Shown here: piece by piece, positions 1,541 to 16,535 of the stretch
Position numbering within the stretch: position 1 is the first letter of the stretch
Layout: every line of letters starts with the position of its first letter
Virus record (IMG/VR): IMGVR_UViG_2778261216_000006
Strand: one strand, 5' to 3'
Length of the DNA: 24,331 bases
Source of the DNA: a virus
Taxonomy: Duplodnaviria > Heunggongvirae > Uroviricota > Caudoviricetes
Made by a program: the position numbers and the translations under genes
The notes under the pieces: generated by a model
Told to the model about the DNA's origin: nothing
The model's input: the letters and a program-made list of their open reading frames with translations, nothing else
The model's database searches: none

Positions 1541-1612
1541 CAAATTGACTACACCATTAACTACACCGTTCGGTGCACTGTATGAAACAACGTGGAACAA
1601 ATAGACACAAGA
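1541..1612. repeat. Left arm-type repeat (ATTGACTACACCATTAACTACACCG ... GAAACAACGTGGAACAA)
   Basis: ~75-bp imperfect direct repeat of 16455-16535; it lies ~70 bp inside the core, as expected for integrase/Xis arm sites. Confidence 0.5.
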
Positions 1613-1898
1613 AATATACAGGCGGGTAATCTTTCCAGGGGGAAGCGCACCAATTCATGAGGGGCGTTAATGTCGATATGGGGATCCCCATAACGGGGCT
1701 ACCGGATTTTTTTTCCGGTTAACCTTTAATCAGGCTGGTGGGTTTTACATACCCTTGATCACCGTAATGATGATCCAGATGTGCACCTTTTCCACCAATG
1801 GCGGAAAGCTCCAACCGTAACGATGATCGCTATGGTTGCCTCGATGGCCTGCGTGGTCATTATGACCATTCAGAATGTGAGGGATGATGTTTCCGCTC

Positions 1899-2305
1899 TC
1901 CTCAAATTGAGGTTACCGGAAATATCAACTACTTAACGATAAACTGGCGAGTAATTAAACTGCGAAAATTTCGTAGCTTGTGACTATCTGAAAGATCGTC
2001 GGTTGTTCCGGCCTCAACCGTTGGCTGTTTCCGAGAATATCAACGGGTTAGCAAAGCGCAATTTTGCACTTTGCTTTAAGTTCAACCAGTTACCGCCAGC
2101 TTCCCCCAATGGGGGATTGTGGAATAATCAACGGTTTAGGCCTTAATCATCTGCGTAAACATAAGTAATCATAATGATCATTCAGCCAGCGCAATTTTGC
2201 GCTTTGCTTTAAGTTCAGCGAGTTACAGCGCCGACTTCCTCAAATTGAGGTTGCCGGAAATATCAACCAGTTACGAGGCTCAAAATTGAGCCGCCTTTAA
2301 ATCAA
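1899..2305. repeat. Structured non-coding repeat region near the island left end
   Basis: No ORF of 60 aa or more; two ~40-bp direct repeats carrying palindrome CCTCAAATTGAGG (1899-1940, 2237-2277), two copies of hairpin AGCGCAATTTTGC(G/A)CTTTGCTTTAAGTTCA (~2056, ~2190), five (A/T)ATCAAC motifs. Confidence 0.5.
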
Positions 2306-2309
2306 CACG

Positions 2310-2591
2310 TTACCGCCGTAACCGCTCCGGCTTCTTCCAGTTGTACGTAATTTTCTCTTTCTCCCTGTACATCTCTACACGGCGATTGTAGGCCAGCATT
2401 TCAAGAACGCGGATCCGTATGTCGCGCATATCCGCATCATTAAGCTGGATACCATCACGGCGCATCACCTCAGCAACAACACGCGCATAATTTTCGGCTG
2501 TCACGCTGTCCGGCTGCGTGGTCTGTTCGTCAGCCTGCTGGCTGATTCCAGAGACGCGGCGGATTAATCGCAGTATTTCGGCTTCTGTCAT
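2310..2591 (-). CDS. Hypothetical protein (93 aa) immediately downstream of terminase large subunit
   Basis: ORF begins 14 nt after the TerL stop with a GAGG ~10 nt upstream; no recognisable family. Confidence 0.5.
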   Translation of the reverse strand: MTEAEILRLIRRVSGISQQADEQTTQPDSVTAENYARVVAEVMRRDGIQLNDADMRDIRIRVLEMLAYNRRVEMYREKEKITYNWKKPERLRR

Positions 2592-2604
2592 GCTGCTGAC
2601 CTCA

Positions 2605-4266
2605 TTACACCCCGCTAAATTCTTCCAGTTTCTGGCGGTGGCTGTCGCTTATATCAAAAGCAAAATCCTCATGCTCTGCCTGGAATGTACCAAACGCCAT
2701 CAGCGCCGCTACGCTCGGGTCTATCTTGTTCGGTGATTTTTTCTTGTTCGGCTTGATATTGGCGTTCGCGTCACTCTGCATCACGACGTTACTCATCGAC
2801 CAGGACAACACCGGATCGCCACGATGCACAATCACCCTGCGGTTAACAAAAACTTCGAACGATTTCGCCGCCGGACTGAATCTGAGGTAGGTTTGCGGGA
2901 ACGGCTCCACCTCAAAACCAGCCCCCTGTAATTGCGTCCTGAGATGCGTGGCGTTCCACGTATCAAAGCCCACCAGCCTGATATTAAATTTCTCCGCATC
3001 CTGCATGATGTCATCTCTGATCCGGTCGTAATCAATGCAGTCACCTGGCGTTGTGCGTATCCAGCCCGCTTTAGCCCACTGGCGATAGACAGCGCGGTTT
3101 TTATTGGCGGGGTTCTGTAGCTGGAACTCCGGCAGATAATGACGGGAAACCAGCATGATATTTTTACCGACCGGAAAGGCATAGCACACGCTGGAAATAT
3201 CGCTGGTTGATGATAAGTCCAGCCCCGCGTAACACTCCTGCCCGTGTAAATCTTCCTCCGTGAACGTTCCGGCACACTCAGCCCATGCGCCGTTACCCAT
3301 CCACGGGGTAGCCCCCTGGCACCAGATATTAAATCGCTTTGTCATCATCTCCACCCATTGCGACGGAATACCCCGCGCTTTCTGGATGGTTGAGGCCAGT
3401 TTTTCACGATCCACGGAAACATCGATGTTAGGGTTAGCCTTTATCCACATCGCCGGATCATCAACCTCGTTTTCGTCGTCCAGCTCGTAAATCAGCACAA
3501 AAATTGAATCGTTGACCTCTTCGCCGTCCAGGATCTGGCAGCAATAATCATAGTGCTGTTTACAGGTTGAAACGACGTTACTGCCCGATGTGGTAATGGC
3601 AAATAACAGCCCTTCGGGACGTGCGCCCATCCCCAGCTCAAGCGCGGAATAAACGCCGTTATCGGGGTGTAGGTGGTATTCGTCCACGATGGAAAGGCTG
3701 GGGTTTGTTCCCTCGATGGTTGCCGCTTTTGCTGCCAGCGGCTTTAACAGGCTGTTGCTTTTCGGGTGCATCACCTTGTGGGCCTGAATATTCACCCGCC
3801 TGCGTAACGGTCGGGATAAAAGGCACATCTGACGCGCATCATCAAAAACGATCCGCGCCTGGTCACGGCTCACCGCTGCGGTGTAAATATCCTGCTGCCC
3901 GTTCTCCATAATCAGAAACCAGTTAGCCAGAATCGCGGCGGTCGTGGATTTCGCATTTTTGCGCGGCACTTCGATAAAGGCGCTCGTGTATTTGCGCCGT
4001 CCGGTGGCCTTAACCTTAAAGCCGAGGATGCACGCAAAGGCGAACTGCTGCCACGGCTCCAGCTCAATGGGTCTGCCACGCATCGGCCCTTTTACGTGCG
4101 GGCACACCCTGGAAAAGGCAATAAACCGCTCCACAACCTCACGATCGAACGTGTAAAGGGGGCTTTCAAGGTCCGAAAAGTACCGTTTAACGGCCTGTTT
4201 CAGCCGTTTACAGGCCGGAATTTTGCCCGTTTTTACGTCTTCTGCGTACTTATTCCAGGCGGTCAA
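2605..4266 (-). CDS. Phage terminase large subunit
   Basis: 553-aa ORF (TTG start in track) with ATPase and nuclease regions typical of HK97-like TerL; start overlaps the TerS stop. Confidence 0.93.
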   Translation of the reverse strand: MTAWNKYAEDVKTGKIPACKRLKQAVKRYFSDLESPLYTFDREVVERFIAFSRVCPHVKGPMRGRPIELEPWQQFAFACILGFKVKATGRRKYTSAFIEVPRKNAKSTTAAILANWFLIMENGQQDIYTAAVSRDQARIVFDDARQMCLLSRPLRRRVNIQAHKVMHPKSNSLLKPLAAKAATIEGTNPSLSIVDEYHLHPDNGVYSALELGMGARPEGLLFAITTSGSNVVSTCKQHYDYCCQILDGEEVNDSIFVLIYELDDENEVDDPAMWIKANPNIDVSVDREKLASTIQKARGIPSQWVEMMTKRFNIWCQGATPWMGNGAWAECAGTFTEEDLHGQECYAGLDLSSTSDISSVCYAFPVGKNIMLVSRHYLPEFQLQNPANKNRAVYRQWAKAGWIRTTPGDCIDYDRIRDDIMQDAEKFNIRLVGFDTWNATHLRTQLQGAGFEVEPFPQTYLRFSPAAKSFEVFVNRRVIVHRGDPVLSWSMSNVVMQSDANANIKPNKKKSPNKIDPSVAALMAFGTFQAEHEDFAFDISDSHRQKLEEFSGV

Positions 4267-4606
4267 GCTCGTCCTCTTCTTCTGTTTCCGGTGGATTTTT
4301 ACGGCGGCTTATCGGGTCAAAACCGAGCAAAGAGGCCATTTTTATCATCACTCTTTCAGCGTCGGATTTTGCGCTTAATGCGGGGTTTCTGCTCTCGCCG
4401 CCCTGACTGTTAACAATGCTGAACCCGCGCGCCGCAAGGTCTGCAACGGCTTTCCGGTAAATGGAGTAGTTGACACAATACAGTTCCAGATTGCTCCAGT
4501 CGGCGGGGGTCAGGTCTCCCCGTTCCGCAAGCTGCCTAGATTTTTCCCGCCACTGCTTCACGGCGATATCATCCAGGTAGGCGGGGGCTTTCGGTGGTCT
4601 TGCCAT
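4250..4606 (-). CDS. Phage terminase small subunit (P27-family-like)
   Basis: 118 aa; LELYCVNYSIYRKA and RNPALSAKSDAERVMIKMASLLGFDP match the small-terminase signature; directly upstream of TerL. Confidence 0.85.
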   Translation of the reverse strand: MARPPKAPAYLDDIAVKQWREKSRQLAERGDLTPADWSNLELYCVNYSIYRKAVADLAARGFSIVNSQGGESRNPALSAKSDAERVMIKMASLLGFDPISRRKNPPETEEEDELDRLE

Positions 4607-4728
4607 GCTTATTTTTCGCCAGATTATTTTTCAAAAAATTCCCGTGCATAAAAATTTGAGGAGGCGTTCGGTGCCCGGCGGGGTCGGGTTTGTCCTGAAA
4701 ACGCCCCCCACCCCGTCATACAGCCTCA

Positions 4729-4911
4729 TCAGCGATTGCGGAAACATTCCATAACCTCGCGGTCACGGTCGGTTAATCGCTTCGCTGTGATGCGTTCTGC
4801 GCGTCCTGACGCTTTATCTTTATGCCCTGTTTCCTGTGTCTTCCATGCGTCACGCTGCCTTATAAGTCCACGGATAAGGCGGTTTTGTTCCCGATCATTC
4901 ATCAGCGTCAT
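4729..4911 (-). CDS. Hypothetical small charged protein (~60 aa) between HNH and TerS
   Basis: C-terminal part of track ORF 4729..5133 lying past the HNH stop (MTLMNDREQNRLIRGL...); the start is my estimate. Confidence 0.35.
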   Translation of the reverse strand: MTLMNDREQNRLIRGLIRQRDAWKTQETGHKDKASGRAERITAKRLTDRDREVMECFRNR

Positions 4912-5335
4912 ACATCCAGTTATTGCGGTTAGCGGCCCGTTCTTCCTCTTCACGAAATCCACCTGCGGCACGCTTGCTTTTTGTTGCCGGATCAAGCCAT
5001 TTCGTTTTCTGGTTATGACACGCCTGACACAATGGTTGATGGTTCCATTCGGGCCAGAAGAGAACATCATCACCGCCATTAATCGGGATAATGTGATCCA
5101 CCACCACGGCGGGCGTATATATCCCCTTCTCAAGGCATCGCACGCATAACGGGTTTTTACTCAGATACATGGCGCGGTATTTGTCCCACTGTCTGGAATA
5201 TCCACGCGCGCGGCGGTGTCCTCGTCTGGCATCCTCTGCACGCCATGCCGCCCGCCTGTGCTCTTCACACTTGCCGGATTTAACGCGCCTGTTACAGCCT
5301 GGTTCTGTGCATCGTCTTAATGGTTGCCACGGCAT
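4895..5335 (-). CDS. HNH endonuclease (phage packaging-associated)
   Basis: 146 aa; Cys-rich N-terminus, VVDHIIPINGG and CQACHNQKT motifs. Confidence 0.9.
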   Translation of the reverse strand: MPWQPLRRCTEPGCNRRVKSGKCEEHRRAAWRAEDARRGHRRARGYSRQWDKYRAMYLSKNPLCVRCLEKGIYTPAVVVDHIIPINGGDDVLFWPEWNHQPLCQACHNQKTKWLDPATKSKRAAGGFREEEERAANRNNWMYDADE

Positions 5336-5631
5336 CAGTACACCCCCACATCACGGTAAGCCGTCCAGAGTGCGCCAATCGTCATGGGTACGCGTGTTTT
5401 TGCGTTATCCGCGACAATCTGGCGATTCTCATACAGGTGAGCGATAAACATCATGCAGCCAATCTTTATGGCTGGCGTGAACTCCAGCCCGTCATCAAAG
5501 CGCCTGCCTATGTGTATCTGGCACGCCTCAAGCGATGCGGCAATGTATCCGCTGATTAACTGGTCTTCCTCGTCGCCATCGATGCGGCAATGGAGTTTCA
5601 CTTCTTCCAGGGTGATAAGTTCTTCTGTCAT
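5335..5631 (-). CDS. gp6-like head-tail connector protein
   Basis: 98 aa; LITLEEVKLHCRIDGDEEDQLISGYIAA N-terminus typical of this family. Confidence 0.8.
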   Translation of the reverse strand: MTEELITLEEVKLHCRIDGDEEDQLISGYIAASLEACQIHIGRRFDDGLEFTPAIKIGCMMFIAHLYENRQIVADNAKTRVPMTIGALWTAYRDVGVY

Positions 5632-6008
5632 TTTTCCGCGCCCTCACGACAAAGAATTTCAAGGCGTGTCCTGGCGGCATCCGGCAGCGGCTGCCCGATG
5701 ATATTCAGTACACGCCCCGCCAGCGGCCCCGTACTGACCTTTATCCGGCTGGTGGCGTTGATGTCCTTCCGGTACCGTATCCAGATCCTTACGGTACCAA
5801 TCGCCAGCTCTGCACCCGATGAAATGGCCTCCTTGCTGCTGACCATGTTCACGCTTGCCCAGAGTGTGTGACCGTCCTCCCACGTTTCGAGTATTTCGCC
5901 GGTTATATCCCTGGTCTGTTTCAGGGTCTGAATCGTTATCCTGTCACGCAGTCGCCCTATGTTCATTCCGGTTTTTCTCCCTCGCTGATTTTTACTTCCT
6001 GTTTCCAT
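5628..6008 (-). CDS. Phage head closure / head-tail adaptor protein
   Basis: 126 aa; MNIGRLRDRITIQ ... VRIWIRYR ... pattern; the true start may be the internal Met near 5966. Confidence 0.78.
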   Translation of the reverse strand: METGSKNQRGRKTGMNIGRLRDRITIQTLKQTRDITGEILETWEDGHTLWASVNMVSSKEAISSGAELAIGTVRIWIRYRKDINATSRIKVSTGPLAGRVLNIIGQPLPDAARTRLEILCREGAEK

Positions 6009-7174
6009 GCCTGGCTGAACTCATCACCACCATCACGCGGTGACAGTCCTTCACGTTCGCGGGCTTCGTTCGGACACATAACGCCGGATTTGATGCCGCG
6101 CTCATAGGTGGCAAAGCGTTCGCCAGGTGTGGCCCGTAACAGGTCCGCGCTGTCAAACTCCACCTGATACCGGATACCAGGTACAGGCGAGGCCACCAGC
6201 AGGGCGTTTTTTATCTGCTGCTCAAAGTTCGCCAGCCACGGGCGCATCGTCATGGTGAGAAATGCGCGGCTTGCCTCGCTGAAATTGCTGTAGGTGCTGT
6301 TGCTGTATTCCTGCAAAAAAATCGGCGAGACGTTGAACATTCGGGCGATGTCTTCAATGGTGAAGCGACGGGAGGCCAGCCATTCAGCATCCTGATTACT
6401 CATGCCCAGCTGCTGATAGCTCATACCCCCTTCAAGGATGGGCGTTTTTCCGGCGTTTCTGGCCCCTTTGTAGCGTTCCAGTGCGGCTAATGCCTGTTTG
6501 CCCTTCACGCCGTCCAGCCATTCGCCTGACGTGATAACCCCTGCCGCCATCATGCCATCACGCATCACGCTCGCGCCGTGGCGTTGTTGGGCCAGCCCAA
6601 GCCCCAGCGATTCGCGGCAGATGGTTACAGGTGAGCGCCCCATAAAGCCGTCATCCGTGGAGTAACGAAGGTGAAGTACTTCCCACGGTAAATAGTTGCG
6701 GGTGTTTCCGGTGTAAGCGTCAGTGATGCAGTAGCGCCAGTTGTGTTCGCCTGTCTGCTCCACGTTCACCGACTGCGGCGGGTAAGGATGTAAAGCCACC
6801 GGAAAACCATCACGCCCCCACTGAATCACCGCATAAGCATTACCGTTTAACAGGCAGTGGCGGATCATCATTCGCTTAAACTGGTAGGGAGTCTGCCACG
6901 CGTTCGGGCGCTCGTTGAGGATGTGATCGACCGGATGAGAATCAAGCCACTCGCGGGCCTCCTTCCCCTTCTCATTGCGTACCAGGTACAGGTAACACGG
7001 CATGGTAGCCACCGCCTCAGAGATGACCGTGACGGCGTTCATAACGGCGGGCAGTGATTCCGCTGTCCCCGATGATACGTACTCACCCGCCCCCGTGTTC
7101 GATGTGCCAGCCAGCGCCATAAACTCATCAAGCGTCATGCTGCGCTGCTCTTTTTTTCTTCTGAAAGGCCACAT
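5963..7174 (-). CDS. Phage portal protein, HK97 family
   Basis: 403 aa; size and conserved blocks of the portal family; lies between protease and head closure genes. Confidence 0.9.
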   Translation of the reverse strand: MWPFRRKKEQRSMTLDEFMALAGTSNTGAGEYVSSGTAESLPAVMNAVTVISEAVATMPCYLYLVRNEKGKEAREWLDSHPVDHILNERPNAWQTPYQFKRMMIRHCLLNGNAYAVIQWGRDGFPVALHPYPPQSVNVEQTGEHNWRYCITDAYTGNTRNYLPWEVLHLRYSTDDGFMGRSPVTICRESLGLGLAQQRHGASVMRDGMMAAGVITSGEWLDGVKGKQALAALERYKGARNAGKTPILEGGMSYQQLGMSNQDAEWLASRRFTIEDIARMFNVSPIFLQEYSNSTYSNFSEASRAFLTMTMRPWLANFEQQIKNALLVASPVPGIRYQVEFDSADLLRATPGERFATYERGIKSGVMCPNEAREREGLSPRDGGDEFSQAWKQEVKISEGEKPE

Positions 7175-7175
7175 A

Positions 7176-7748
7176 TCACACCCCCGCTAAATCCACCCAC
7201 CAGCGGCGATTATCCGCACGCGGCATTTTTTCGGGGTGCTGCTCATACAGGGAACGGCGGGCCAGCTCCACGCCGGAATCGGGGTAAGCCGGTACCGATG
7301 TAACGGTAATTTCGTACAGTTCCGCCACCAGCACGGTGCGCACGCATGGATCTGTTGTGGTATCCCATACATCCTTACGGGAGCGAAAGCCAAAGCTCAT
7401 CCCCGAGATGTCCCCACGCTTAACCAGTTCGATAACGTCGCGCCCTGTACTGGTATCCGGTGGGGTCAGTTCAAAGCGTAACCCTGTTTCGTCCTCTTCC
7501 AGTTTCAGCGTGCCGGAACGGGTGCGCCCCAGTAACATGCTGTGGTCATGCTCATACAGGCCGCGAACGTCATTACCCGCCGCAAGCCATTCAGTAAACG
7601 CCCCCCGCTGGAATTTTTCGTAAAACTCACCCCATAACAGTTCTGAAAGCTTATCCCAGCGAACAACGTAGCCCGTCAGCGTACCGGCTCCGCTGGTGGT
7701 GATTTCCGATGACCGGATTTCCATACTCTTCATAATTTTTTCACCCAT
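7176..7748 (-). CDS. HK97-family prohead serine protease
   Basis: 190 aa; TLTGYVVRWDKLS, HDHSMLLGRT and GMSFGFR blocks. Confidence 0.9.
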   Translation of the reverse strand: MGEKIMKSMEIRSSEITTSGAGTLTGYVVRWDKLSELLWGEFYEKFQRGAFTEWLAAGNDVRGLYEHDHSMLLGRTRSGTLKLEEDETGLRFELTPPDTSTGRDVIELVKRGDISGMSFGFRSRKDVWDTTTDPCVRTVLVAELYEITVTSVPAYPDSGVELARRSLYEQHPEKMPRADNRRWWVDLAGV

Positions 7749-7787
7749 AAAACACTAAAGGGGCTTTTAAGCCCCTTCTGTATGCTG

Positions 7788-9226: not shown

Positions 9227-9245
9227 GTATGTGCTGTATGGGTGC

Positions 9246-9470: not shown

Positions 9471-9562
9471 TGCGTTTTCCTCTGTTGTGTCTGTTTGTTT
9501 CAGATAGTAACTATGCCGGACCGTGACGAAAAGCCAGTAGTGCTCCATACCGTTTCAAATGA

Positions 9563-9588
9563 CGCAAAAAAGCCGGATTGCTCCGGCT
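9563..9588 (-). terminator. Rho-independent terminator (second copy of AGCCGGAGCAATCCGGCT hairpin)
   Basis: Same hairpin plus T-run on the minus strand, downstream of the PerC-like gene. Confidence 0.6.
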
Positions 9589-9610
9589 GCGTGGTGTGGT
9601 TCTGATATTC

Positions 9611-9859
9611 CTACTCAGCTAATTTGCTCAGCCCCATGTCTGCGTAAGTGCGATTTACTGCATTTCTCAGGTCTGCGTAGTTCTCCGTTGGCGGCTCCGG
9701 TGGCCTCTGTGCCTTCCTGGAACATTCCAGCCGTCGCATCGTAACCTGATGCCGTTCCTTGTCTGTCTCCACCAGTTGCATGACTTCACCCCATCGCGCC
9801 GACGCCCTCCGGTAAAATCCTTTCGCCTCGAGTTCCTCCGCTATGCGGTCATGTACCAT
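9611..9859 (-). CDS. PerC-family-like transcriptional regulator (82 aa)
   Basis: Start at internal Met with strong SD (GAGGGGGTGA); MVHDRIAEELEAKGFYRRASARWGEVM resembles the PerC-family N-terminus (from memory). Confidence 0.5.
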   Translation of the reverse strand: MVHDRIAEELEAKGFYRRASARWGEVMQLVETDKERHQVTMRRLECSRKAQRPPEPPTENYADLRNAVNRTYADMGLSKLAE

Positions 9860-9869
9860 CGTCACCCCC

Positions 9870-10280
9870 TCAGAACGGAATACCGTCACCGTAAGGGTCA
9901 TCGCCTCCCGCTGGTGGCTGATTACCCTGTGTGCCTGTGGTTTTGCGTCTGTTCCCGCCTGGACGTGCCGCGCGGGCACTGATTACGCTGTCTGCAATAA
10001 CCTGATACCCCCGCCGCGTTTCCCCGTTCTGTCCGGTCCACTGGCTTACCTGCATCGTGCCGGATACGCTGGCAACATCGCCTTTTTGATGTTTAGCCAG
10101 GAAATCGGCCTGTTTGCCAAATGCGATAACCGATAACCATAACGTCGCCTGTCCGTCCTGTGCCTGGCTGCATGGCAAAGATACCGCCATACGCGCCAGC
10201 GTCATCGGTGTGCCCTTGCTGGTCTGTTTTACCTGCGGGTCGTCCACCAGCCGCCCGTAAGCCGCTATCTGTGCTGTCAT
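9870..10280 (-). CDS. Single-stranded DNA-binding protein (SSB-like)
   Basis: 136 aa; OB-fold core blocks, Gly/Pro-rich linker and acidic C-terminal tip ending DGIPF; ATGA overlap with the upstream gene. Confidence 0.8.
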   Translation of the reverse strand: MTAQIAAYGRLVDDPQVKQTSKGTPMTLARMAVSLPCSQAQDGQATLWLSVIAFGKQADFLAKHQKGDVASVSGTMQVSQWTGQNGETRRGYQVIADSVISARAARPGGNRRKTTGTQGNQPPAGGDDPYGDGIPF

Positions 10281-10528
10281 GCTGTCTGCTCTCCGGTTTT
10301 AACGTTGATTGTTGTTACCTGTTCCGCTTCGGCAATCTCCCGTTCTGTCAGCGTGGCAAAGTTTGCCGCCGCTGTTGTCATGAATGCGCTTATCAGTTCG
10401 GGATGCTCCTTCGCGTATCCTTCCCCCGCGTGGCGGTCTATCGTTCTGATTGCCACCTTTAAAGCCAGTTCAGCCATATCTAACGCCTTATATTTCGGCT
10501 CTGTTCTGTCTCTGCGTTTTTGGGTCAT
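10277..10528 (-). CDS. Hypothetical protein (start uncertain, 66-84 aa)
   Basis: Track ORF 10277..10558 overlaps the iterons at its 5' end, so an internal Met (10528 or 10477) is the likely start; translationally coupled to ssb. Confidence 0.5.
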   Translation of the reverse strand: MTQKRRDRTEPKYKALDMAELALKVAIRTIDRHAGEGYAKEHPELISAFMTTAAANFATLTEREIAEAEQVTTINVKTGEQTA

Positions 10529-10540
10529 TTCTCGCAACCT

Positions 10541-10730
10541 CTCACTTTTTCGCCTCACTTTTTCAAGCGTCTCACTTCGTCGCAGTTGGGATTTTTGGTT
10601 TTTCTATGTGTGTGTTTCATAAGTATTTTTTTACCCCTCACTTTTGAGGATGTATACAGGTCGAAAAGTGAGGGAGAGCAGGCTAATTTTGGCCCTCTTT
10701 CCACCCCCCTCGCTTTTGCTCCTCACTTTT
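10541..10730. repeat. Iteron array (CTCACTTTT repeats, at least 6 copies in both orientations) with AT-rich spacer: candidate island replication origin
   Basis: Copies near 10541, 10554, 10571 (variant), 10637, 10665 (inverted), 10709 (variant), 10722; immediately downstream of the replication helicase gene. Confidence 0.55.
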
Positions 10731-12138
10731 ATAGCGGCGCTACATCATCCCCATCGATACGAATAACCCCATCTTTTTCCAGCTTGTACAGCCAGCGCCG
10801 GAAGTTTTTCATTTCATACCCCAGTTTTTTCATGTCATCACGTAACAGCGGGATCGTGCACTTGTCGCCGTTCTGTGTGCGTGAACGGATGCACCCCCAT
10901 AGCGCGGTATGGTTTTCCGTCTTGTTCCCTGCCTCCTCGATGCGCTCCAGTTCAACGGGAGGGCGCGGCTTATCCACCACCACCAGCGACGTGATTAACT
11001 CCCCGTCAGCGTCGGTAAAAAGCTCCACCACCCGCAAATCATAGGCAGCCTCTTTGAGTTCCTCCGCGTCCTTCATTTTGGTGCATGAGATAACCAGCGC
11101 TTCGCTTCCTGCGTCCTCCCTGCGTATCCGGTATTCAGCATCCAGTGATGCACGAAATGCACTGGAACCGCGCGCGCCTTTCGTCTCATCCTTGCCGGAA
11201 TGGTGAACCACCAGCACCGTGGCCCCTGTGCGTCGTTTCAGTTCGTCACACCCACGGATAAACGCCCCCATGTCGCGGGAGTCATTTTCATCATTGCCGC
11301 CAAAGCAGCGCGCCAGCGTGTCCAGAATAATCATGCGAACAGGTTTACCCGTTTCCCTCTCCACCTGACTGGCAGCAATAACCAGTTCATCAACATCAAG
11401 CGGGACAGCCGGAAAGATGGGACGGTTTACCAGATACAGATTTTTCACCTGCTCACCGTGCACAACCTCCCAGGCTTTTACACGACGCGGAACGCCGATA
11501 CCGCCTTCACCAACCACATAGAGAACAGCGCCATGCGCCACCCTGCGGCCTCCCCACTGGCGGCCCGTGGAAACGTGACACGCCCACGATCCGGCAAGGA
11601 ATGATTTATAGGAACCGCTCGCCCCGTATATGCTGCAAAGCGACGATGCCGGAATAATCCCCTTTACCACGTAATCAAGCTGTGTGTCGTATCCGGTAGA
11701 TCCAACGCTCATCGGTAGCGTGGTTTTTCGCTGGGGAATTTTTTTCATGACCAGGCTTTCCCCGCGTTCCCATGCCTCCCTAAGCCGTGGAAGCTGGTCG
11801 CTCCATTCCTCCAGCAATTCGAAATTTTCAGAAAGTAGCCGCGCCTCCTGGACTCCGGCGATCGCCAGTTTCGTGGCGATGGTTAACAGCTGCGGCTCTT
11901 CAATATTTCCGGCGCGTATCACCGTCGCCCTGTATCGCCCATCATCAACAATCTGGAGGTTATCCAGTTCGCTTAACTGATAACGCCCCAGATAAACGGG
12001 AGGGACTGGATCGCCTGCTTTTTTGGCCTGTGCAATGATGTAATGCTCTGCGAATGAGTGAGCATCAATACCCGCAAAAATAATCGCATCGGTGTATTTG
12101 TCTTTCGGTAATAGTTTTACGTTCGGTGCCAGTTTCAT
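10729..12138 (-). CDS. Replication protein, RepA-like AAA ATPase/helicase (satellite pri-rep type)
   Basis: 469 aa; Walker A (YGASGSYKSF), Walker B (RMIILDTL), VVHHSGKDETKGARGSSA block. Confidence 0.85.
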   Translation of the reverse strand: MKLAPNVKLLPKDKYTDAIIFAGIDAHSFAEHYIIAQAKKAGDPVPPVYLGRYQLSELDNLQIVDDGRYRATVIRAGNIEEPQLLTIATKLAIAGVQEARLLSENFELLEEWSDQLPRLREAWERGESLVMKKIPQRKTTLPMSVGSTGYDTQLDYVVKGIIPASSLCSIYGASGSYKSFLAGSWACHVSTGRQWGGRRVAHGAVLYVVGEGGIGVPRRVKAWEVVHGEQVKNLYLVNRPIFPAVPLDVDELVIAASQVERETGKPVRMIILDTLARCFGGNDENDSRDMGAFIRGCDELKRRTGATVLVVHHSGKDETKGARGSSAFRASLDAEYRIRREDAGSEALVISCTKMKDAEELKEAAYDLRVVELFTDADGELITSLVVVDKPRPPVELERIEEAGNKTENHTALWGCIRSRTQNGDKCTIPLLRDDMKKLGYEMKNFRRWLYKLEKDGVIRIDGDDVAPL

Positions 12139-12434
12139 TTTTTACCCCTGAATCCGTTAATCATGGTTTTCAGCTTCTGGATGTTTGCCCGTGCCCTGGC
12201 GTTGCTGGTGGGCACGTTATGCGGCGCGGTCTGTACCAGAGAAAAATCACGCCGGAACTGATAAACAGGCATCACGCAATCATATTCGTAACCTTCACGG
12301 CGGTAAGTTACGCACCGTCCCGCCACGCCCTTAATCATTACCATGCCGCCGTACTGGTCGCGGTAAATATCACCGCGCGTAAATTTAGGGTGAGTGTTGC
12401 CACTGGCAGTTAAGCCAGAATATTTAAGTTTCAT
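12135..12434 (-). CDS. Hypothetical protein (99 aa)
   Basis: GGAGA SD ~9 nt upstream; stop overlaps the rep start (ATGA). Confidence 0.55.
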   Translation of the reverse strand: MKLKYSGLTASGNTHPKFTRGDIYRDQYGGMVMIKGVAGRCVTYRREGYEYDCVMPVYQFRRDFSLVQTAPHNVPTSNARARANIQKLKTMINGFRGKK

Positions 12435-12439
12435 TATTT

Positions 12440-12670
12440 TTATTCTCCGGTGTGGGGCGCGTTATTATTTTCGTGAATTGCCATTGCCTTATCCAGTTCA
12501 TCAATAACAGGCGATAGTAATGTCTGAATGGCTGCAAACATTAATGACGAAGATTCTTCGCCAGATTCCGGCACTTCAATTAATTTGCCTAACAACGCAT
12601 TCATTTCCTTTGCGCGGATTAATGCGTTTTCAGAGTGGATTAATACTTCAAAAGGGATTTTATGCATCAC
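12440..12670 (-). CDS. Hypothetical protein (76 aa)
   Basis: AAGGGAG SD upstream; tightly packed in the operon. Confidence 0.5.
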   Translation of the reverse strand: MMHKIPFEVLIHSENALIRAKEMNALLGKLIEVPESGEESSSLMFAAIQTLLSPVIDELDKAMAIHENNNAPHTGE

Positions 12671-12890
12671 AAATTTTCTCCCTTATTCTTTTAATGTCCT
12701 CATTAAGGATGTCTGTAACTTTTATCAGCGAGTTTTTGGCAATTATTTTTATTGTTTTAAGTTTTCTTTTGTCGTGCTCCGACTGTGATTTTCTCTCCAT
12801 GCTCTCCACCATGTGGGTAACATCAACGAGCGCACGTATCAGTATTTGCATTGCTTCTTCTGCTGCGTCCGGTGTGGTTTTATTGTGCAT
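12660..12890 (-). CDS. Hypothetical protein (76 aa), first gene of the replication operon
   Basis: Internal Met of track ORF 12660..12932 with strong SD (AGGGGGAAACCT). Confidence 0.5.
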   Translation of the reverse strand: MHNKTTPDAAEEAMQILIRALVDVTHMVESMERKSQSEHDKRKLKTIKIIAKNSLIKVTDILNEDIKRIREKICDA

Positions 12891-13122
12891 AGGTTTCCCC
12901 CTGGCGAATACGGGCGGCAAATACAGCAACACAACCGGACGGGCAACGGTTACGCGCTTCGCGTTCCGTCCAGGCGGTTACGTGGATGATTTGACGTTCT
13001 GACGCGCCAAAGGCAATAAAGCGCCAGATGTATTTATTCAGGTTGTGCGAGTCCCGCCCTTGCGGGTGTGTGGTATGATTTCTCATAGCTACCTCGATAC
13101 TATTGCTATCGTTGGTGGTTAG

Positions 13123-13156
13123 ACGCCCCGTATGTGTGCCACCACTGCGGGGCGTT
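13123..13156 (+). terminator. Conserved hairpin GACGCCCCG...CGGGGCGTT (copy 1) bounding cassette 1
   Basis: 8-bp GC-rich stem; near-identical copy at 13860-13896. Confidence 0.45.
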
Positions 13157-13167
13157 GCCTTTTGGTG

Positions 13168-13208
13168 CAAGTCACCTTTAAAGGCTATGCTACTTTCAGG
13201 TGACTTGC
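13168..13208. promoter_or_regulatory. 11-bp perfect inverted repeat GCAAGTCACCT / AGGTGACTTGC (operator-like) upstream of cassette 1
   Basis: Read directly; followed by a T-rich tract and TATACT -10-like hexamer (~13241). Confidence 0.4.
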
Positions 13209-13276
13209 ACTTCAAGCCTTTTTTTATTTTTTTTTCTGCGTATACTGAACGCCACCTAACAGTAAGGAGGCCAGTA

Positions 13277-13456
13277 ATGCCAACGGGTACAACCAACAAC
13301 AAATCACAACAAAAAACGGCTAGAGTTCCTCTAGAAGTTTTAAGCGAAATGAATTTGGTCAAAGAAGAAAACGAAACAGACGCGCAATTCATCGTTACAG
13401 CCATGCGCGGCGAAATCAAACGCCGCCAGCGCCGCAAGGCCAAAGAATCAGAATAA
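13277..13456 (+). CDS. Arc-like ribbon-helix-helix DNA-binding protein (59 aa)
   Basis: Strong SD AAGGAGG 6 nt before ATG; RVPLEVLSEMNLVKEENETDAQFIVTAM matches the Arc pattern (P-x-E-V-L ... EEN). Confidence 0.55.
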   Translation: MPTGTTNNKSQQKTARVPLEVLSEMNLVKEENETDAQFIVTAMRGEIKRRQRRKAKESE

Positions 13457-13461
13457 TCACT

Positions 13462-13505
13462 ATCAGCGCCGTGGTGTGAGGAACTCCGGCGCATTGCTTT
13501 ACAGG
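13462..13505 (+). promoter_or_regulatory. Conserved 44-bp intergenic element ATCAGCGCCGTGGTGTGAGGAACTCCGGCGCATTGCTTTACAGG (copy 1)
   Basis: Contains stem GCGCCG/CGGCGC; second copy at 14146-14189 with a single mismatch. Confidence 0.5.
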
Positions 13506-13513
13506 GCAGCACT

Positions 13514-13741
13514 ATGAACGAACACACATCATCACCGGAAAACGGCGAAAGCACGTCAACATATGAAATCATCCGGCAAAGGCAGTCAGAAGCCTGCGCC
13601 AGACTTGAGGAAGAACTAACCAGAACAAAAATACCACCACCAGCGCCGCGCTTAGTGCCACCAGAAAAATTTGCCCTTGAAGATTTTGTCGATAAATACC
13701 CACGGCGGCTTAAATCCGGCAAAAACCGACCGCCAGGATGA
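13514..13741 (+). CDS. Hypothetical small protein (75 aa), partner of the Arc-like gene
   Basis: ATG 9 nt after the conserved element; shares F-A-x-x-x-F-V-D-K-Y-P-R-R block with the 14198..14401 product. Confidence 0.4.
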   Translation: MNEHTSSPENGESTSTYEIIRQRQSEACARLEEELTRTKIPPPAPRLVPPEKFALEDFVDKYPRRLKSGKNRPPG

Positions 13742-13859
13742 GTGCACAAAACCGAACTATGAAACGGATTATTCCGTTTCCGGGGCGTTTGTGTGTGTAT
13801 AAAGAGTAAGCTATGCTCTTTTATAGCCATAATCGTTACCTCAATTAATGGTTTGGTTA

Positions 13860-13902
13860 GACGCCCCGTATGTGTTCCCATCACTGCGGGGCGTTGTTTT
13901 TT
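13860..13902 (+). terminator. Conserved hairpin GACGCCCCG...CGGGGCGTT plus T-run (copy 2), between cassettes
   Basis: Stem followed by GTTGTTTTTTG. Confidence 0.5.
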
Positions 13903-13945
13903 GTGCTAGTTGTGTGTAATGTGTATATACACATAAACACATTAT

Positions 13946-14140
13946 ATGGGTGTAATTGACGTGTCAACACACAAAAATGAAAGGCGTGGTAATCCTCCTT
14001 TCCAGTTCCGTTTAGATCCTGACTTACGGGAAAAGATGGAAAAAGCACAACAACAAGACGGTGATGACTCTTTAGCTGCTTGGATAAAACGAATAATCCG
14101 AAAAGAATTACAGCAACGCGGTATTGAACCCAAAGAATAA
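13946..14140 (+). CDS. Arc-like ribbon-helix-helix DNA-binding protein (59-64 aa)
   Basis: PPFQFRLDPDLREKMEKAQQQDGDDSLAAWIKRIIRKE follows the Arc pattern (from memory); start ATG 13946 or GTG 13961; palindrome ATGTGTATATACACAT just upstream. Confidence 0.55.
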   Translation: MGVIDVSTHKNERRGNPPFQFRLDPDLREKMEKAQQQDGDDSLAAWIKRIIRKELQQRGIEPKE

Positions 14141-14197
14141 AAAACATCAGCGCCGTGGCGTGAGGAACTCCGGCGCATTGCTTTACAGGTACACACA

Positions 14198-14401
14198 ATG
14201 ACCAATAAAGAATCAACCAATACACCATCGCAAAAAACGAACAGAGAGCACGAAAATATGGCGCTCGAGCATGAATCAGAAAGATTCGCTCCATGCGCTT
14301 TTGTCCTTGATGAGTTTCTAAAAAAATATTCACGTTCTGAACGGATGAAAATGGCAGCACAATACGGCCCCAACAAGCAAGGTAATTGCCCACCAGCCTG
14401 A
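14198..14401 (+). CDS. Hypothetical small protein (67 aa), paralogue of the 13514..13741 product
   Basis: Same position relative to the conserved element; shared FxxxxFVLDEFLKKYSR block. Confidence 0.4.
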   Translation: MTNKESTNTPSQKTNREHENMALEHESERFAPCAFVLDEFLKKYSRSERMKMAAQYGPNKQGNCPPA

Positions 14402-14473
14402 TAGCGGCTATCATTCCCGTGCTTATGTTTGGGATCACATACACATAAGGCGCAGCAGGTTAATTGTTCAGAA

Positions 14474-14506
14474 AGGCGGCTCCATATCGGGGCCGCTTTT
14501 TTTATG
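14474..14506 (+). terminator. Rho-independent terminator ending the plus-strand cassettes
   Basis: GCGGC...GCCGC stem followed by TTTTTTT. Confidence 0.55.
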
Positions 14507-14644
14507 CCTGAAAAACCCCAATTTTGTTGTTTTTCAGTTTCACCAGGGCGAACGAATCCCCGCCCACGTTCGGGCGCATATTCAATCTTCATAGTTATAT
14601 CTCTGTATTAGTGGATGTGTGGCGACTGTGTGCCGCCAGTCTTT

Positions 14645-14833
14645 TTAGTGAACTGCCTTGCAGCTATCCTTCCAGGCCAAAACCTCAGATAAAGACCAGC
14701 CAACAGAACGCCCACCAAGTTTACGACGTGATGGGAATTGTCCGGCCTTTTCCAGGCGGTAGCGGCATGAGCGGCTAAGGCCTGTTAGCTTTTCGCATTC
14801 TTTTTCACGTATAAACCGATCAGTGCTTAACAC
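14645..14833 (-). CDS. alpA: AlpA-family phage regulatory protein (Xis-like activator)
   Basis: 62 aa; LSEVLAWKDS-type C-terminus typical of the AlpA family; sits just downstream of the integrase as in PICIs. Confidence 0.88.
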   Translation of the reverse strand: MLSTDRFIREKECEKLTGLSRSCRYRLEKAGQFPSRRKLGGRSVGWSLSEVLAWKDSCKAVH

Positions 14834-14995
14834 TATTGCCCCCTTTCGTTTCTTAAAGAGTTATTTCGTGTTCTATTGCGTTGGGATGTGTCTGATTGTG
14901 TCAGGATGATTCAGAGTTGGCAAATGTTGGTGTCGCATGGTTTACAGAAAGAGGAATAATCAGGATAAAATCATTTAAATTCATGTTAATACAAA

Positions 14996-15030
14996 GGCAT
15001 AAAATCTTGTTTTATGCCTTTTTTCGCACG
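14996..15030. terminator. Hairpin GGCATAAAA-TCTTG-TTTTATGCC with flanking T-run between int and alpA
   Basis: 9-bp perfect stem followed by TTTTTT on the plus strand; weaker T-tract on the minus strand. Confidence 0.45.
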
Positions 15031-15114
15031 CTTTAACGCGTAATTCACTAATGTATAAAAAACCAGTCACACAAATAAAATCAGTCACTTATAAACCTGC
15101 GTACTTTTTCGCCT

Positions 15115-15145
15115 CTTGTTCGTGGTTGTTCCACGTTGTTTCACA
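15115..15145. promoter_or_regulatory. Inverted copy of the GAACAACGTGGAACAACCACGAACAA dyad motif
   Basis: Reverse complement matches 9158-9189 over ~28 bp; ~70 bp downstream of the int stop. Confidence 0.4.
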
Positions 15146-15207
15146 TTGTTCGCCGTTGTATCTGTGTGCTTATCCAGTATACGCATACTGAAAAAACACG
15201 AAAAAAA

Positions 15208-16458
15208 TTATTTTCTTCTGGCTGCTGGTAGTGCGGTTACGTTTTCATGTGTTCCCGCCAGTATCCCTAACCGCTCCGTCCACATATCCAGCGCATTGCG
15301 TTTAGCATCCAGATAACGGGAATGATTATAAACTCGCTGCATTCCTGGCATCTGGTGGCCTGTAAGCTGCTCCACGACGTGCGGATCAACGCCTAAATCG
15401 TTCAGCATGGTTGTAAAGGTGCGCCGGATGTCATGCAGTGACCAGTGAGGGTGTTTAAGCCTCCTGTGCGCTAATCTGCCGTACTGCGACACGCTGGTTT
15501 CCTGTTTCACTTCCCCCAGCAATAAGCCCGTGTGCCTGTTCTGCTCCACCAGCTGCGTGATGAACGGCAGTATCGCTTCCGGTATGGGCCGGAATATGGC
15601 TACCTTCGTTTTACTGTGCTCCTTCGGAACGGTCCAGAGCATTTCGGTAAAATCCCACTCGCCGATCTCAGATAACCTAAGTTCGACCGTCCGGCATCCG
15701 AACACAATCAGGAGGCGGATTAGCGCGATGTAGTAGGGGGAGAATATTTTTTTGTCCAGTGCCTGCAATAATTCGCCAAGTTCTTTGTTGCTTAAGACAC
15801 GCTCGCTTATATCCGGTTTTTTCCCAACGTCAGCCACACTCATATCATCAAGAACGTTGCTGATTGCATAGCGCCGCTTCCTGCAGAACTTAAGCGCCTG
15901 CTTGCATGTCTGTAGCAGGAACCCGGCGGAAACAGGGGCTTTCTTTGCCACCCGATCAAAACAGGCCAGCCAGTGCCGTAGCTCGCATTTATCCAGCGGC
16001 ATAGGGCCAATGTGCTGTATTACGTGATTATTTAGCCGCTTTTTCAGTGGGTCATAATCCACACGGTTTTCCTTTGCGTACGACTCAAGCCAGTAGGTGA
16101 GCGCATCGCCAACCGTTACAGGCTTTAACGCTTCCTGTACGGAGTAATTCATCTCATGGCGTGGATTTTTCCCTTCTGCCAGCCATGCACGACACTGGGC
16201 GGCTTTTTCCCTGGCTGATTTCAGGCTCAGATCAGGATAATTTCCCAGCTTAATGCGTTCCGGTGGTGCCCCCCTTCCCGCTCCGGCCCTGTAAGTGAAA
16301 TACCAGGTTAAAAGGCCGCTGGTTGAATGCCTGACACTCAGGTTTCCACCGTCATTAAGAAAGGCTGTTTTTTGGGCGGGTGTGCCGTTGATTTTCCTTA
16401 GCTGTGTATCGCTCAGTTTGTTAAGTGCTCTGCTCATAATTTTGAATCCGGTCATCAC
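15208..16458 (-). CDS. int: Tyrosine recombinase/integrase, P4-like family
   Basis: 416 aa; N-terminal arm-binding-like region, catalytic-domain blocks (HDIRRTF, LGHQMPG-type); start codon uncertain (GTG 16458, ATG 16455 or 16437). Confidence 0.94.
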   Translation of the reverse strand: MMTGFKIMSRALNKLSDTQLRKINGTPAQKTAFLNDGGNLSVRHSTSGLLTWYFTYRAGAGRGAPPERIKLGNYPDLSLKSAREKAAQCRAWLAEGKNPRHEMNYSVQEALKPVTVGDALTYWLESYAKENRVDYDPLKKRLNNHVIQHIGPMPLDKCELRHWLACFDRVAKKAPVSAGFLLQTCKQALKFCRKRRYAISNVLDDMSVADVGKKPDISERVLSNKELGELLQALDKKIFSPYYIALIRLLIVFGCRTVELRLSEIGEWDFTEMLWTVPKEHSKTKVAIFRPIPEAILPFITQLVEQNRHTGLLLGEVKQETSVSQYGRLAHRRLKHPHWSLHDIRRTFTTMLNDLGVDPHVVEQLTGHQMPGMQRVYNHSRYLDAKRNALDMWTERLGILAGTHENVTALPAARRK

Positions 16459-16535
16459 AATTAACTACACCATTAACTACACCGATCGTTGCACAAAGGG
16501 CTACAACGTGAAACAAGCTGGAACAAGAAAAATCA
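16455..16535. repeat. Right arm-type repeat (ATTAACTACACCATTAACTACACCG ... GAAACAAGCTGGAACAA)
   Basis: Direct repeat of 1541-1612, between the int start and the attR core. Confidence 0.5.

Follow-up and report, generated by a model that had tools for sequence, protein, structure and literature searches.

The DNA analyzed here, a stretch of 24,331 nucleotides (IMG/VR record IMGVR_UViG_2778261216_000006; the whole stretch is called the window), has its closest described counterparts in the phage-inducible chromosomal islands (PICIs) EcCICFT073 and EcCIEDL933, which occupy the same insertion site and have the same published core (PMC6092414; preprint 10.1101/2022.09.08.507074). Both sources give the core only and make no mention of arm modules, arm geometry or RAACAA arrays. 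Helper-phage induction and transfer of EcCIEDL933 and EcCICFT073 are known from the literature. Its arms are near-identical to those of EcCICFT073, which has the same arm modules and an array between int and alpA, and its gene order and capsid module are those of cf-PICIs. The integrase is ca. 97% identical to that of its closest relatives (L002 and IMG/VR loci).

An arm layout of the same kind was reported for the helper-embedded PICIs (HE-PICIs), whose attP contains a tandem doubled motif with a 12-bp period in two co-oriented copies, one 81 ± 2 bp upstream of the attP centre and the other 132 ± 2 bp downstream (PMC10111431). According to that paper other PICIs lack this motif; it makes no mention of RAACAA arrays. 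In the window the corresponding distances are 78 and 132 bp. The motif itself is different (gGTGTAGTTAAt versus tgTGTATTGCa), and HE-PICIs integrate into prophage late genes whereas the site in the window is intergenic. Furthermore, the HE-PICI integrase is only ca. 43% identical to that of the window. The element has an HE-PICI-like layout and is not a member of the HE-PICI clade.

Phage P4 is like the window in having a P4-family integrase, encoded by an int gene that is read away from attP. The P4 core lies inside a tRNA-Leu gene and is 20 bp long, compared to the 10-bp intergenic core of the window. The P4 RDF and regulator Vis is an AlpA-family protein; it reportedly binds between int and the core, and late promoters are said to be regulated by it as well. 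The RDF sites of lambda and P4 (the Vis boxes in P4) are known from one arm only, and arrays on both arms are unusual. In the P4 sequence (GenBank X51522) contiguous, co-oriented pairs of 12-bp arm repeats occur at 3942-3965 and 4151-4174, around the core at 4078-4097, with one pair just upstream of the int start and the other on the opposite arm. The P4 arm distances are 122.5 and 63.5 bp versus 132 and 78 bp in the window, and the arm motif is ATGCCCCCAA versus ACTACACC.

The systems of lambda Xis, 186 Apl and P2 Cox have arm-type sites that are distinct from core-type sites, as in the window (PMC7498355). RDF operators are usually direct repeats one helical turn apart, and the RDFs Apl and Cox also regulate promoters (PMC7498355). 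Such phased repeats and promoter regulation resemble what we propose for the putative arrays described below. At sequence level the proteins belong to different families (P4-type Arm-DNA-bind_3 and Phage_AlpA in the window), and the number and placement of the sites differ, with putative RDF arrays in both arms of the window.

Table 1. Features of the island, its attachment sites and its flanks (positions in the window).
Feature	Position	Strand	Remarks
phoQ, 3' part	1-1461	+	Left flank, B side; stop TAA at 1459-1461
attL copy of the 10-bp identity block	1460-1469	+	AAATATGTCC; presumed 7-bp overlap TATGTCC at 1463-1469
C' core-type site (sequence inference)	1470-1477	+	TTTTATCA; perfect inverted repeat of TGATAAAA at 16604-16611
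IHF-consensus match	1489-1501	-	AATCAATTGGTTG (WATCAANNNNTTR); exact; between core and P' doubled motif
P'-arm doubled motif	1544-1567	+	ATTGACTACACC then ATTAACTACACC; 12-bp period; candidate Int arm-type pair; 78 bp from overlap centre
P'-arm RAACAA units	1584-1611	+	GAAACAACGTGGAACAAATAGACACAAG; 10-bp phasing; candidate AlpA (RDF) sites
Internal RAACAA array	9160-9185	+	Three units; upstream of capsid operon
alpA	14645-14833	-	Pfam Phage_AlpA
int-alpA RAACAA array	15116-15159	-	Four to five units, in opposite orientation to the arm arrays; between int stop and alpA
int	15208-16437	-	Tyrosine integrase, N-terminal Arm-DNA-bind_3; likely start ATG at 16437
P-arm doubled motif	16460-16483	+	ATTAACTACACC then ATTAACTACACC; candidate Int arm-type pair; 132 bp from overlap centre
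P-arm RAACAA array	16501-16527	+	CTACAACGTGAAACAAGCTGGAACAAG; three units, 10-bp phasing; between doubled motif and core
C core-type site	16604-16611	+	TGATAAAA
attR copy of the identity block	16609-16618	+	AAATATGTCC; presumed overlap at 16612-16618
roxA (ycfD)	16677-17807	+	Right flank; ATG at 16677

The island and its integrase

The insert between phoQ and roxA is a 15.1-kb phage satellite, a capsid-forming PICI (cf-PICI) of the EcCIEDL933 type that comprises positions 1470-16608 (15,139 bp). Pfam matches were found for TerL, TerS, HNH, two connector proteins, portal, S78 protease and capsid, and further for SSB, an AAA_25 helicase, AlpA and Int. The capsid and packaging module is complete, the int, alpA and replicase genes are co-directional, and no tail genes were found in the island by Pfam searches and annotation comparison. 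The annotation of L002, which matches 91% of the query at 96% identity, agrees with that of the island. The attachment site is PICI-specific, being located at ycfD-phoQ with core GGACATATTT as in EcCICFT073 and EcCIRM12579. Rfam and tRNA scans of the window were both empty, and therefore the site is no tRNA or tmRNA target. Both junctions are present in 600 of 5426 E. coli genomes. Of the complete genomes of E. coli, 11% carry a member of the element family at this one site.

The int gene adjoins the att site and its product has the two parts needed for a heterobivalent att site, an N-terminal arm-binding domain (Arm-DNA-bind_3, residues 8-95, E 6e-18) and a catalytic domain (Phage_integrase, residues 214-375).

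The core and the presumed crossover region

A sequence-only reading of the window had placed a 10-bp core repeat right after the phoQ stop and ca. 60 bp upstream of roxA, and implied that the core would be found in the empty site of related strains. Both points were confirmed. The sequence AAATATGTCC occurs exactly twice in the window, each time on the plus strand, with 0.07 occurrences expected. The left copy begins within the phoQ stop codon, of which it covers the last two bases, and the right copy ends 58 bp before the roxA start codon. The empty site L001 contains a single AAATATGTCC, and the partners of attL and attR switch exactly at that block, which is common to attL, attR and empty attB. 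Among the empty-site E. coli genomes listed, homology on the left ended mostly at 1469, with a few rows ending at 1463-1466, and homology on the right started mostly at 16609. The core GGACATATTT already published for EcCICFT073 at ycfD-phoQ (PMC6092414 Table S1) is the reverse complement of AAATATGTCC.

The reconstructed attP reads TGATAAAA - TATGTCC - TTTTATCA. At sequence level, such inverted core-type sites around a 7-bp spacer occur in seven islands with six different cores. The C' site is (A/T)TTTATCA in five of seven sister islands, and one-base variants occur in L008 (TTTTCTCA) and L062 (TTTTATAA). From this arrangement we infer that the identity block consists of 3 bp of a core-type site plus the 7-bp overlap TATGTCC, where strand exchange would take place.

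The predicted phoQ-type attP junction gave no match in viral contigs, and the single metagenome match, L097, lies within an unrelated coding sequence and was discarded as fortuitous. The excised form has therefore been sequenced only for a tqsA-type sister island, for which the circular 11.1-kb metagenome contig L041 has the P' arm, core and P arm joined, i.e. an assembled attP.

Repeats in the attachment site arms

The sequence-only reading also described imperfect direct repeats of ca. 80 bp, some 70 bp inside each core, with a doubled motif spaced about one helical turn, and likened these to P and P' arm sites for integrase and Xis/AlpA that would flank the core symmetrically in the excised circle. 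The repeats are indeed present as co-oriented 75-nt sequences at 1543-1617 and 16459-16533, with 58 of 75 positions identical (77%); the first begins 73 bp inward of the left core and the second stops 75 bp short of the right core. Each is composed of a doubled motif with a 12-bp period (GGTGTAGTyAAT twice, int strand) and an array of RAACAA units phased at 10 bp. The window has no more than four exact copies of ACTACACC, which form two pairs spaced 12 bp apart, at 1548 and 1560 and at 16464 and 16476. The symmetry did not hold: as both repeats point the same way, the functional sites lie at unequal distances on the two sides of the core (78 versus 132 bp from the overlap centre for the doubled motif). 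The designation as P and P' arm sites agrees with the comparison to the sister islands, L041, P4 and the HE-PICIs; its division between Int and AlpA is a proposal made at the level of sequence.

The distance of the doubled motifs from the overlap centre is invariant, 132-133 and 76-78 bp in seven related islands with six cores, and the arm modules are retained in sister islands with other cores. Repeated candidate arm-type sites, whose sequence differs from that of the core-type sites, are present on both sides of the core at fixed distances. The P-arm doubled motif lies 22 bp upstream of the int ATG and overlaps the int promoter region. The P' arm contains one exact match to the IHF consensus, of which the AATCAAT core is retained in most sister P' arms, and the P arm has a one-mismatch match only (16549-16561). 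In PMC6092414 Table S1 the sequence given as 'att core' of EcCIDI14 and of the 'yejM-luxR' PICIs is the doubled arm motif itself; the actual crossover region of L006 is the tRNA-Pro 3' end.

Phased RAACAA arrays

Allowing at most one mismatch, RAACAA-N4-RAACAA has 11 matches in the window where 0.7 are expected. Besides the arms, two regions within the island have such arrays, one at 9160-9185 and an inverted one at 15116-15159; both had escaped the sequence-only reading. The array at 9160-9185 is directly downstream of a terminator (9209-9226, minus strand), ca. 170 bp upstream of the first in-frame start of the capsid ORF (8993) and ca. 215 bp from the capsid start that matches the L002 annotation. 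This late-operon array is conserved in other cf-PICIs and an HE-PICI, and is kept with both AlpA alleles. The EcCICFT073 equivalent of the int-alpA array has 6-7 units and is located inside the AlpA-activated PalpA-lacZ fragment (L095 2628-3083). A motif-first scan of viral contigs for TTGTTC arrays recovered the late arrays of cf-PICIs and of the HE-PICI L117 and was otherwise mostly noise, with Int or AlpA relatives encoded by 12 of 117 new loci.

The RAACAA arrays are probably operators for AlpA. PICI excision requires alpA (PMC6092414) and AlpA activates its own expression (PMC11773190). In the tRNA-Pro PICI L006, whose AlpA is 27% identical, another repeat with 10-bp phasing, CACCGGA, is found in the P arm and again 25-35 bp upstream of the alpA ATG, with nine copies on one strand and none on the other. 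Against AlpA binding, islands of the L005 and L008 types keep the arm arrays and have no clear array upstream of alpA, and the int-alpA array of the window lies ca. 130-240 bp from the best promoter-like hexamers, which are not enriched over shuffled sequences. Promoter scans in the vicinity of the arrays did not exceed the expectation from shuffled sequences. In P. aeruginosa the mapped AlpA element is GGGACGN5GGTA, which is dissimilar to RAACAA. An EcCICFT073 Pint-lacZ fusion did not respond to AlpA (PMC6092414); its forward primer was apparently in roxA (by eye, with a one-base discrepancy), but neither Pint primer could be mapped on L095, so that the fragment may or may not include the P-arm array. 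That the arrays constitute a four-site AlpA operator set, with members in both att arms, upstream of alpA and upstream of the capsid operon and with a sequence covarying with AlpA across PICI lineages, is a tentative proposal to which we give somewhat less than an even chance.

Proposed assignment of the motifs to proteins

The doubled motif is most likely the arm-type site of Int, because its variants track the arm-binding domain of Int and not AlpA. In 55 of 55 arms examined the variant follows the Int N-domain class: RHSTSGLL/RHSTNGLL integrases occur with yAA (37 arms), KYLTSGKL with CAC (16) and KHSKGGKL with CAG (2). We regard it as quite unlikely that the roles are swapped or shared, with AlpA or another island protein on the doubled motif and RAACAA serving as a second class of Int arm sites. 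The authors of the HE-PICI study did leave the binder open between Int arm domains, AlpA and an unknown protein (PMC10111431), and as this clade passes on Int and AlpA together in nearly all cases, their respective roles at the arm arrays are difficult to disentangle. However, L005 and L008 have a similar AlpA and different doubled motifs, whereas the window and L005 have the same doubled motif with AlpA proteins that are only 61% identical. Moreover, the late-operon RAACAA array persists in L117 together with a 43%-identical Int and its own, different doubled motif, and an equivalent array lies within the AlpA-responsive promoter fragment. An AlpA-based scan using one genome per species gave six loci, mostly remote, and was of no help in separating Int from AlpA. 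In the circle the two arms are ca. 200 bp apart and the P-arm motif is 22 bp from the N-terminal codons of int; therefore the covariation could reflect linkage or gene conversion. Structures of homologous domains in the PDB are those of the apo N-domain and of AlpA-family proteins, with no DNA complex among them. Alternatively, the 75-nt repeats might be a relic without function, left over from an old duplication or tandem-island recombination, with only the 10-bp core being of importance. In favour of this, the two copies are only 77% identical. Against it, in the otherwise diverged arms of L005 and L008 the motif blocks and core distances stay conserved, the four half-sites change in concert between Int classes, and the attPs of P4 and HE-PICIs have the same layout. 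We consider a relic very improbable.

It appears unlikely that the RAACAA units are replication iterons or sites for a host protein that binds direct repeats, such as a response regulator of the OmpR/PhoB family, although short repeats with a 10-bp phase are characteristic of iterons and response-regulator boxes as well. Phage P4 has crr iteron clusters ca. 200 bp from attP, and the TTGTTC unit loosely resembles the type 1 repeats of P4 ori/crr, TGTTCACC, to which the alpha protein binds. Arrays are nevertheless unchanged between islands with two unrelated replicases, the RepA-type AAA_25 helicase (window, L002) and a primase (L003-L005, L008, EcCICFT073). PICI origins are located 3' of rep (PMC6092414), where the window has separate repeats (10546-10730; D12/D18). 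The arrays are positioned at the att arms, in the int-alpA gap and upstream of the capsid gene, and since they show no covariation with the replicase the iteron reading was rejected. As for a host regulator, the unrelated tRNA-Pro PICI has replaced RAACAA by CACCGGA in both its arm and its alpA promoter, which points to a factor encoded by the island and differing from one island to the next, and not to a fixed host factor.

Proposed mechanism and significance

We consider it likely that the locus as a whole is a cf-PICI inserted by a P4-family Int, with composite arms of Int arm-type pairs and AlpA operators. In the mechanism that we propose, the P4-family tyrosine integrase would insert the island between phoQ and roxA via the 7-bp overlap TATGTCC. 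The N-terminal domain of Int would bind the 12-bp pairs at 132 bp (P) and 78 bp (P') from the overlap centre, so that one Int tetramer could bridge both arms and the core on bent DNA; the P' arm contains an IHF-like site. The three helically phased RAACAA units in each arm would be operators for AlpA, the putative winged-helix RDF and activator of the island. Upon helper-phage induction AlpA would accumulate and coat the arrays of attL and attR, thereby shaping an excisive intasome. AlpA may also act at the array upstream of alpA, for autoactivation, and at the one upstream of the capsid and packaging operon.

The att layout is an ordinary P4-type layout with one modest, testable new detail. 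The analysis gives a base-level map of a PICI attP with predicted overlap and core-type sites, arm-type pairs and candidate RDF operators. It extends the 132/78-bp arm geometry of HE-PICIs to another integrase clade, with a resemblance to phage P4, and indicates that some published 'att cores' are really arm repeats. Current understanding is thereby refined and made testable, and is not overturned. For AlpA, the master regulator of Gram-negative PICIs for which no mapped site was found in the literature searched, it provides a concrete candidate operator. If the four-site operator set is real, RDF filaments on both attP arms would have no described counterpart in lambda or P4, and other PICI lineages would follow the same rule of a common phased repeat at an att arm and the alpA promoter, e.g. 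CACCGGA in tRNA-Pro PICIs. One small winged-helix protein would then couple excision of the island to transcription of its regulatory and packaging genes.

Identity of the island

The two copies of AAATATGTCC in the window are separated by 15,139 bp. Gene and Pfam content show that the head and packaging module of the island is complete, whereas tail genes are absent among the genes encoded between positions 1470 and 16608. One E. coli island (L002) is 96% identical over 91% of the query and its annotation agrees with that of the window island, which is a capsid-forming phage-inducible chromosomal island (cf-PICI) of the EcCIEDL933 type (10.1101/2022.09.08.507074).

Features of the island and its attachment sites (window coordinates)
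Feature	Position	Strand	Remark
AAATATGTCC, attL copy	1460-1469
AAATATGTCC, attR copy	16609-16618
75-nt arm repeat, P'	1543-1617
75-nt arm repeat, P	16459-16533
IHF consensus, exact match	1489-1501	minus	P' arm
Tyrosine integrase (int)	15208-16437	minus
AlpA (alpA)	14645-14833	minus
AAA_25 helicase-type replicase and SSB	within island	minus
HK97-like head/packaging genes		minus	capsid, S78 protease, portal, two connector proteins, HNH, TerS, TerL
Inverted RAACAA array	15116-15159		four to five units, between int and alpA
RAACAA array	9160-9185		three units, directly after terminator, upstream of capsid gene
TTTTnCnCCTCACTTTT, three copies	10546-10562, 10629-10645, 10714-10730		directly 3' of replicase gene

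The variable zone contains a 68-nt direct repeat (13450-13517 and 14134-14201, 85% identical). The two copies end at the ATG codons of small plus-strand ORFs (13514-13741; 14198-14401) that run against the island gene direction, and the repeat looks like a duplicated promoter or leader module. Small plus-strand ORFs, one of the YlcI/YnfO family, are annotated in the same zone of L002. The TTTTnCnCCTCACTTTT copies are spaced 83-85 bp, with a longer repeat pair at 10519-10562 / 10687-10730, and since PICI origins have been reported 3' of the replicase gene (PMC6092414) these repeats are probably the origin. A family of four 37-42-nt repeats, spaced at intervals of 88-135 bp, occupies positions 1899-2317, in the stretch from the P' arm to the last island gene. 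Every one includes a short palindrome, e.g. CCTCAAATTGAGG, and the CFT073 and ATCC 25922 PICIs have comparable repeats at the corresponding end.

Junctions and core

The sequence-only reading had proposed a 10-bp core direct repeat at both ends of the island, and this was confirmed. The 24.3-kb window has exactly two copies of AAATATGTCC, against 0.07 expected; the left one shares bases with the phoQ stop codon TAA (1459-1461) and the right one ends 58 bp ahead of the roxA start. The empty site L001 has a single copy, and comparison with it showed that attL (left flank plus island) and attR (island plus right flank) are both joined exactly at the 10-mer. Among the empty-site genomes listed, left-flank homology mostly ends at 1469, with a few rows at 1463-1466, and right-flank homology mostly begins at 16609. 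The outcome that would have refuted the sequence-only reading, absence of the 10-bp match from the empty site of related strains, was therefore not seen. The full attL junction was present in 600 of 5426 complete E. coli genomes, as was the full attR junction (600/5426). The core sequence is not new: GGACATATTT was published as the core at ycfD-phoQ for EcCICFT073 and EcCIRM12579 (PMC6092414 Table S1).

The reconstructed attP core region reads TGATAAAA / TATGTCC / TTTTATCA, in which 7 bp separate the halves of a perfect 8-bp inverted repeat. From this pattern, which sister islands with other cores share, we infer a 7-bp overlap at 1463-1469 / 16612-16618, in which case bases 1-3 of the 10-mer would be part of a core-type site.

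Arm repeats and the excised form

The imperfect direct arm repeats with a doubled motif, also described from sequence, are co-oriented and identical at 58 of 75 positions. Both contain the doubled motif ATTrACTACACC ATTAACTACACC, with a period of 12 bp, and a phased array of three RAACAA units at 10-bp spacing; exact ACTACACC is confined to the doubled motifs within the window. On the int side 132 bp separate the start of the doubled motif from the overlap centre, and its end is 22 bp away from the int ATG; on the far side it lies 78 bp from the centre. The AATCAAT core of the P'-arm IHF match is kept in most sister arms, whereas the P arm has at best a one-mismatch match. The P-side blocks adjoining the core are conserved across islands with different cores.

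Islands with 67-97% identical integrases occupy other sites (tqsA, allC-allE, cspD-clpS, rcnR-thiM and others). Their cores differ but the arm modules are the same, with distances of 132-133 and 76-78 bp in seven islands with six cores. A search of viral contigs and metagenomes for the excised phoQ-type attP junction gave no genuine match. The 11,098-bp metagenome contig L041 (IMGVR_UViG_3300045988_152974) has a 119-bp terminal overlap and is therefore circular; in it P' arm, core and P arm are joined and attP is intact. This is the predicted excised form, but of a tqsA-type sister and not of the phoQ type. It supports the proposal that the arms flank the core in the circle, but the proposed symmetry did not hold, since the 75-nt repeats are direct and the sites asymmetric about the core (132 versus 78 bp). 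Sequence L091 (1-300) has an attP-type junction and then, at its far end, a normal junction with clpS, which points to tandem copies or to a mixed assembly.

Comparison with known attachment sites

In outline the arm layout is already known from phage P4 and helper-embedded PICIs (HE-PICIs). The P4 GenBank record (L096) lists contiguous 12-bp pairs, 'attP arm sequence repeats', flanking the core on both sides at 122.5 and 63.5 bp, one pair directly upstream of int. HE-PICIs carry the doubled motif tgTGTATTGCantgTGTATTGCa in co-oriented copies, whose distances from the attP centre are 81 +/- 2 and 132 +/- 2 bp, with Int arm domains, AlpA or another factor given as possible binders (PMC10111431). 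The window island has the same geometry but a different doubled motif, and its Int is ~43% identical to one HE-PICI Int. In the PICIs at yicC-dinD (L007) and tRNA-Pro (L006), which have unrelated P4-family integrases, each arm likewise bears a doubled motif with a 12-bp period; the L007 distances (~124 and 63 bp) match those of P4. Their motifs are GTGTACAyAA and TTTAGTTATACG (L007 1586-1645, 13303-13330; L006 1245-1310), each island having two inverted copies adjoining int.

For some PICIs, the sequences published as 'att cores' turn out to be arm repeats. The EcCIDI14 'att site core' CGGTGTAGTTAATGGTGTAGTTAATT matches the window doubled motif (1544-1567/16460-16483) in reverse complement, and the yejM-luxR PICI 'core' TTTGTAGTTATACGTTTGTAGTTATACGG is a doubled arm motif as well (both PMC6092414 Table S1). 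The true L006 junction is the tRNA-Pro 3' end (L006 1043-1310 and 12505-12600 compared).

Candidate binders of the arm sites

The arm repeats had been read as sites for integrase and AlpA, and the comparisons support this assignment at the level of sequence. Int contains Pfam Arm-DNA-bind_3, and in every arm examined the doubled-motif variant matches the Int N-domain class: RHSTSGLL/RHSTNGLL with GGTGTAGTyAAT (37 arms), KYLTSGKL with GGTGTAGTCACT (16 arms) and KHSKGGKL with TGTGTGGTCAGT (2 arms). The motif does not track AlpA; the latter is similar in sister islands L005 and L008, whose motifs differ, and 61% identical between the window and L005, whose motif is the same. Linkage is a caveat on the covariation, as the P-arm site lies directly against the 5' end of int and the arms are near each other in the circle. 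Int is very probably the binder of the doubled motif. Both the phoQ core (L032) and the tqsA core are found with the KYLTSGKL class, and the arm module and N-domain therefore recombine independently of core specificity. L032 combines the KYLTSGKL domain and GGTGTAGTCACT arms, which are tqsA-type traits, with a phoQ-roxA flank and the variant core GGGCATATTT (compared with L003 and the window), and is evidence of modular exchange between an arm/N-domain and a core/catalytic module.

For the RAACAA arrays AlpA is the best candidate, with a likelihood we put slightly above even, on several observations taken together. Operators of recombination directionality factors (RDFs) typically repeat in direct orientation at intervals of one helical turn and are bound cooperatively, and RDFs often regulate promoters too (PMC7498355); the arrays have the same architecture. 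PICI excision requires alpA (PMC6092414; PMC11773190). AlpA activates a lacZ fusion of a 456-bp CFT073 fragment (PMC6092414), and this fragment, placed by mapping the supplement primers on the EcCICFT073 locus (L095), includes the counterpart of the int-alpA array with 6-7 units. The late-operon array is kept in an HE-PICI (L117) with different Int and doubled motif and in cf-PICIs with either AlpA allele, and the arrays are the same in islands with unrelated replicases. The ATCC 25922 tRNA-Pro PICI is an independent case: its AlpA and Int are 27% and 23% identical to the window proteins, it has no RAACAA, and a different 10-bp-phased repeat, CACCGGA, is present in three plus two copies in the P arm and another two 25-35 bp ahead of the alpA ATG, with a strand bias of 9 copies to 0 in 14 kb. 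Against AlpA, however, L005- and L008-type islands have no obvious array upstream of alpA, the window array there is distant from any promoter-like hexamers, and Pint-lacZ expression was unchanged by AlpA (PMC6092414).

Between the late-operon array and the capsid gene, the leader contains a 17-bp-stem inverted repeat at 9036-9083 (TTTCCCGCCTGGTAATG...CATTAACAGGCGGGAAA), kept in other cf-PICIs and with no T-run behind it, which might form a regulatory structure at the RNA or DNA level. In P4 (L096), three contiguous 10-bp CAyTTAAAGy units (9176-9205) carry the annotation 'ori type 2 repeats'. They lie ~150 bp ahead of ORF88 (vis) and recall the phased PICI arrays located upstream of alpA.

What is added here is a specific arm motif and fixed geometry for this integrase clade, evidence tying the doubled motif to the Int N-domain, and the recognition of some published PICI 'att cores' as doubled arm repeats. 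The RAACAA arrays add a candidate AlpA operator set that is shared by the two arms with two regulatory regions inside the island.
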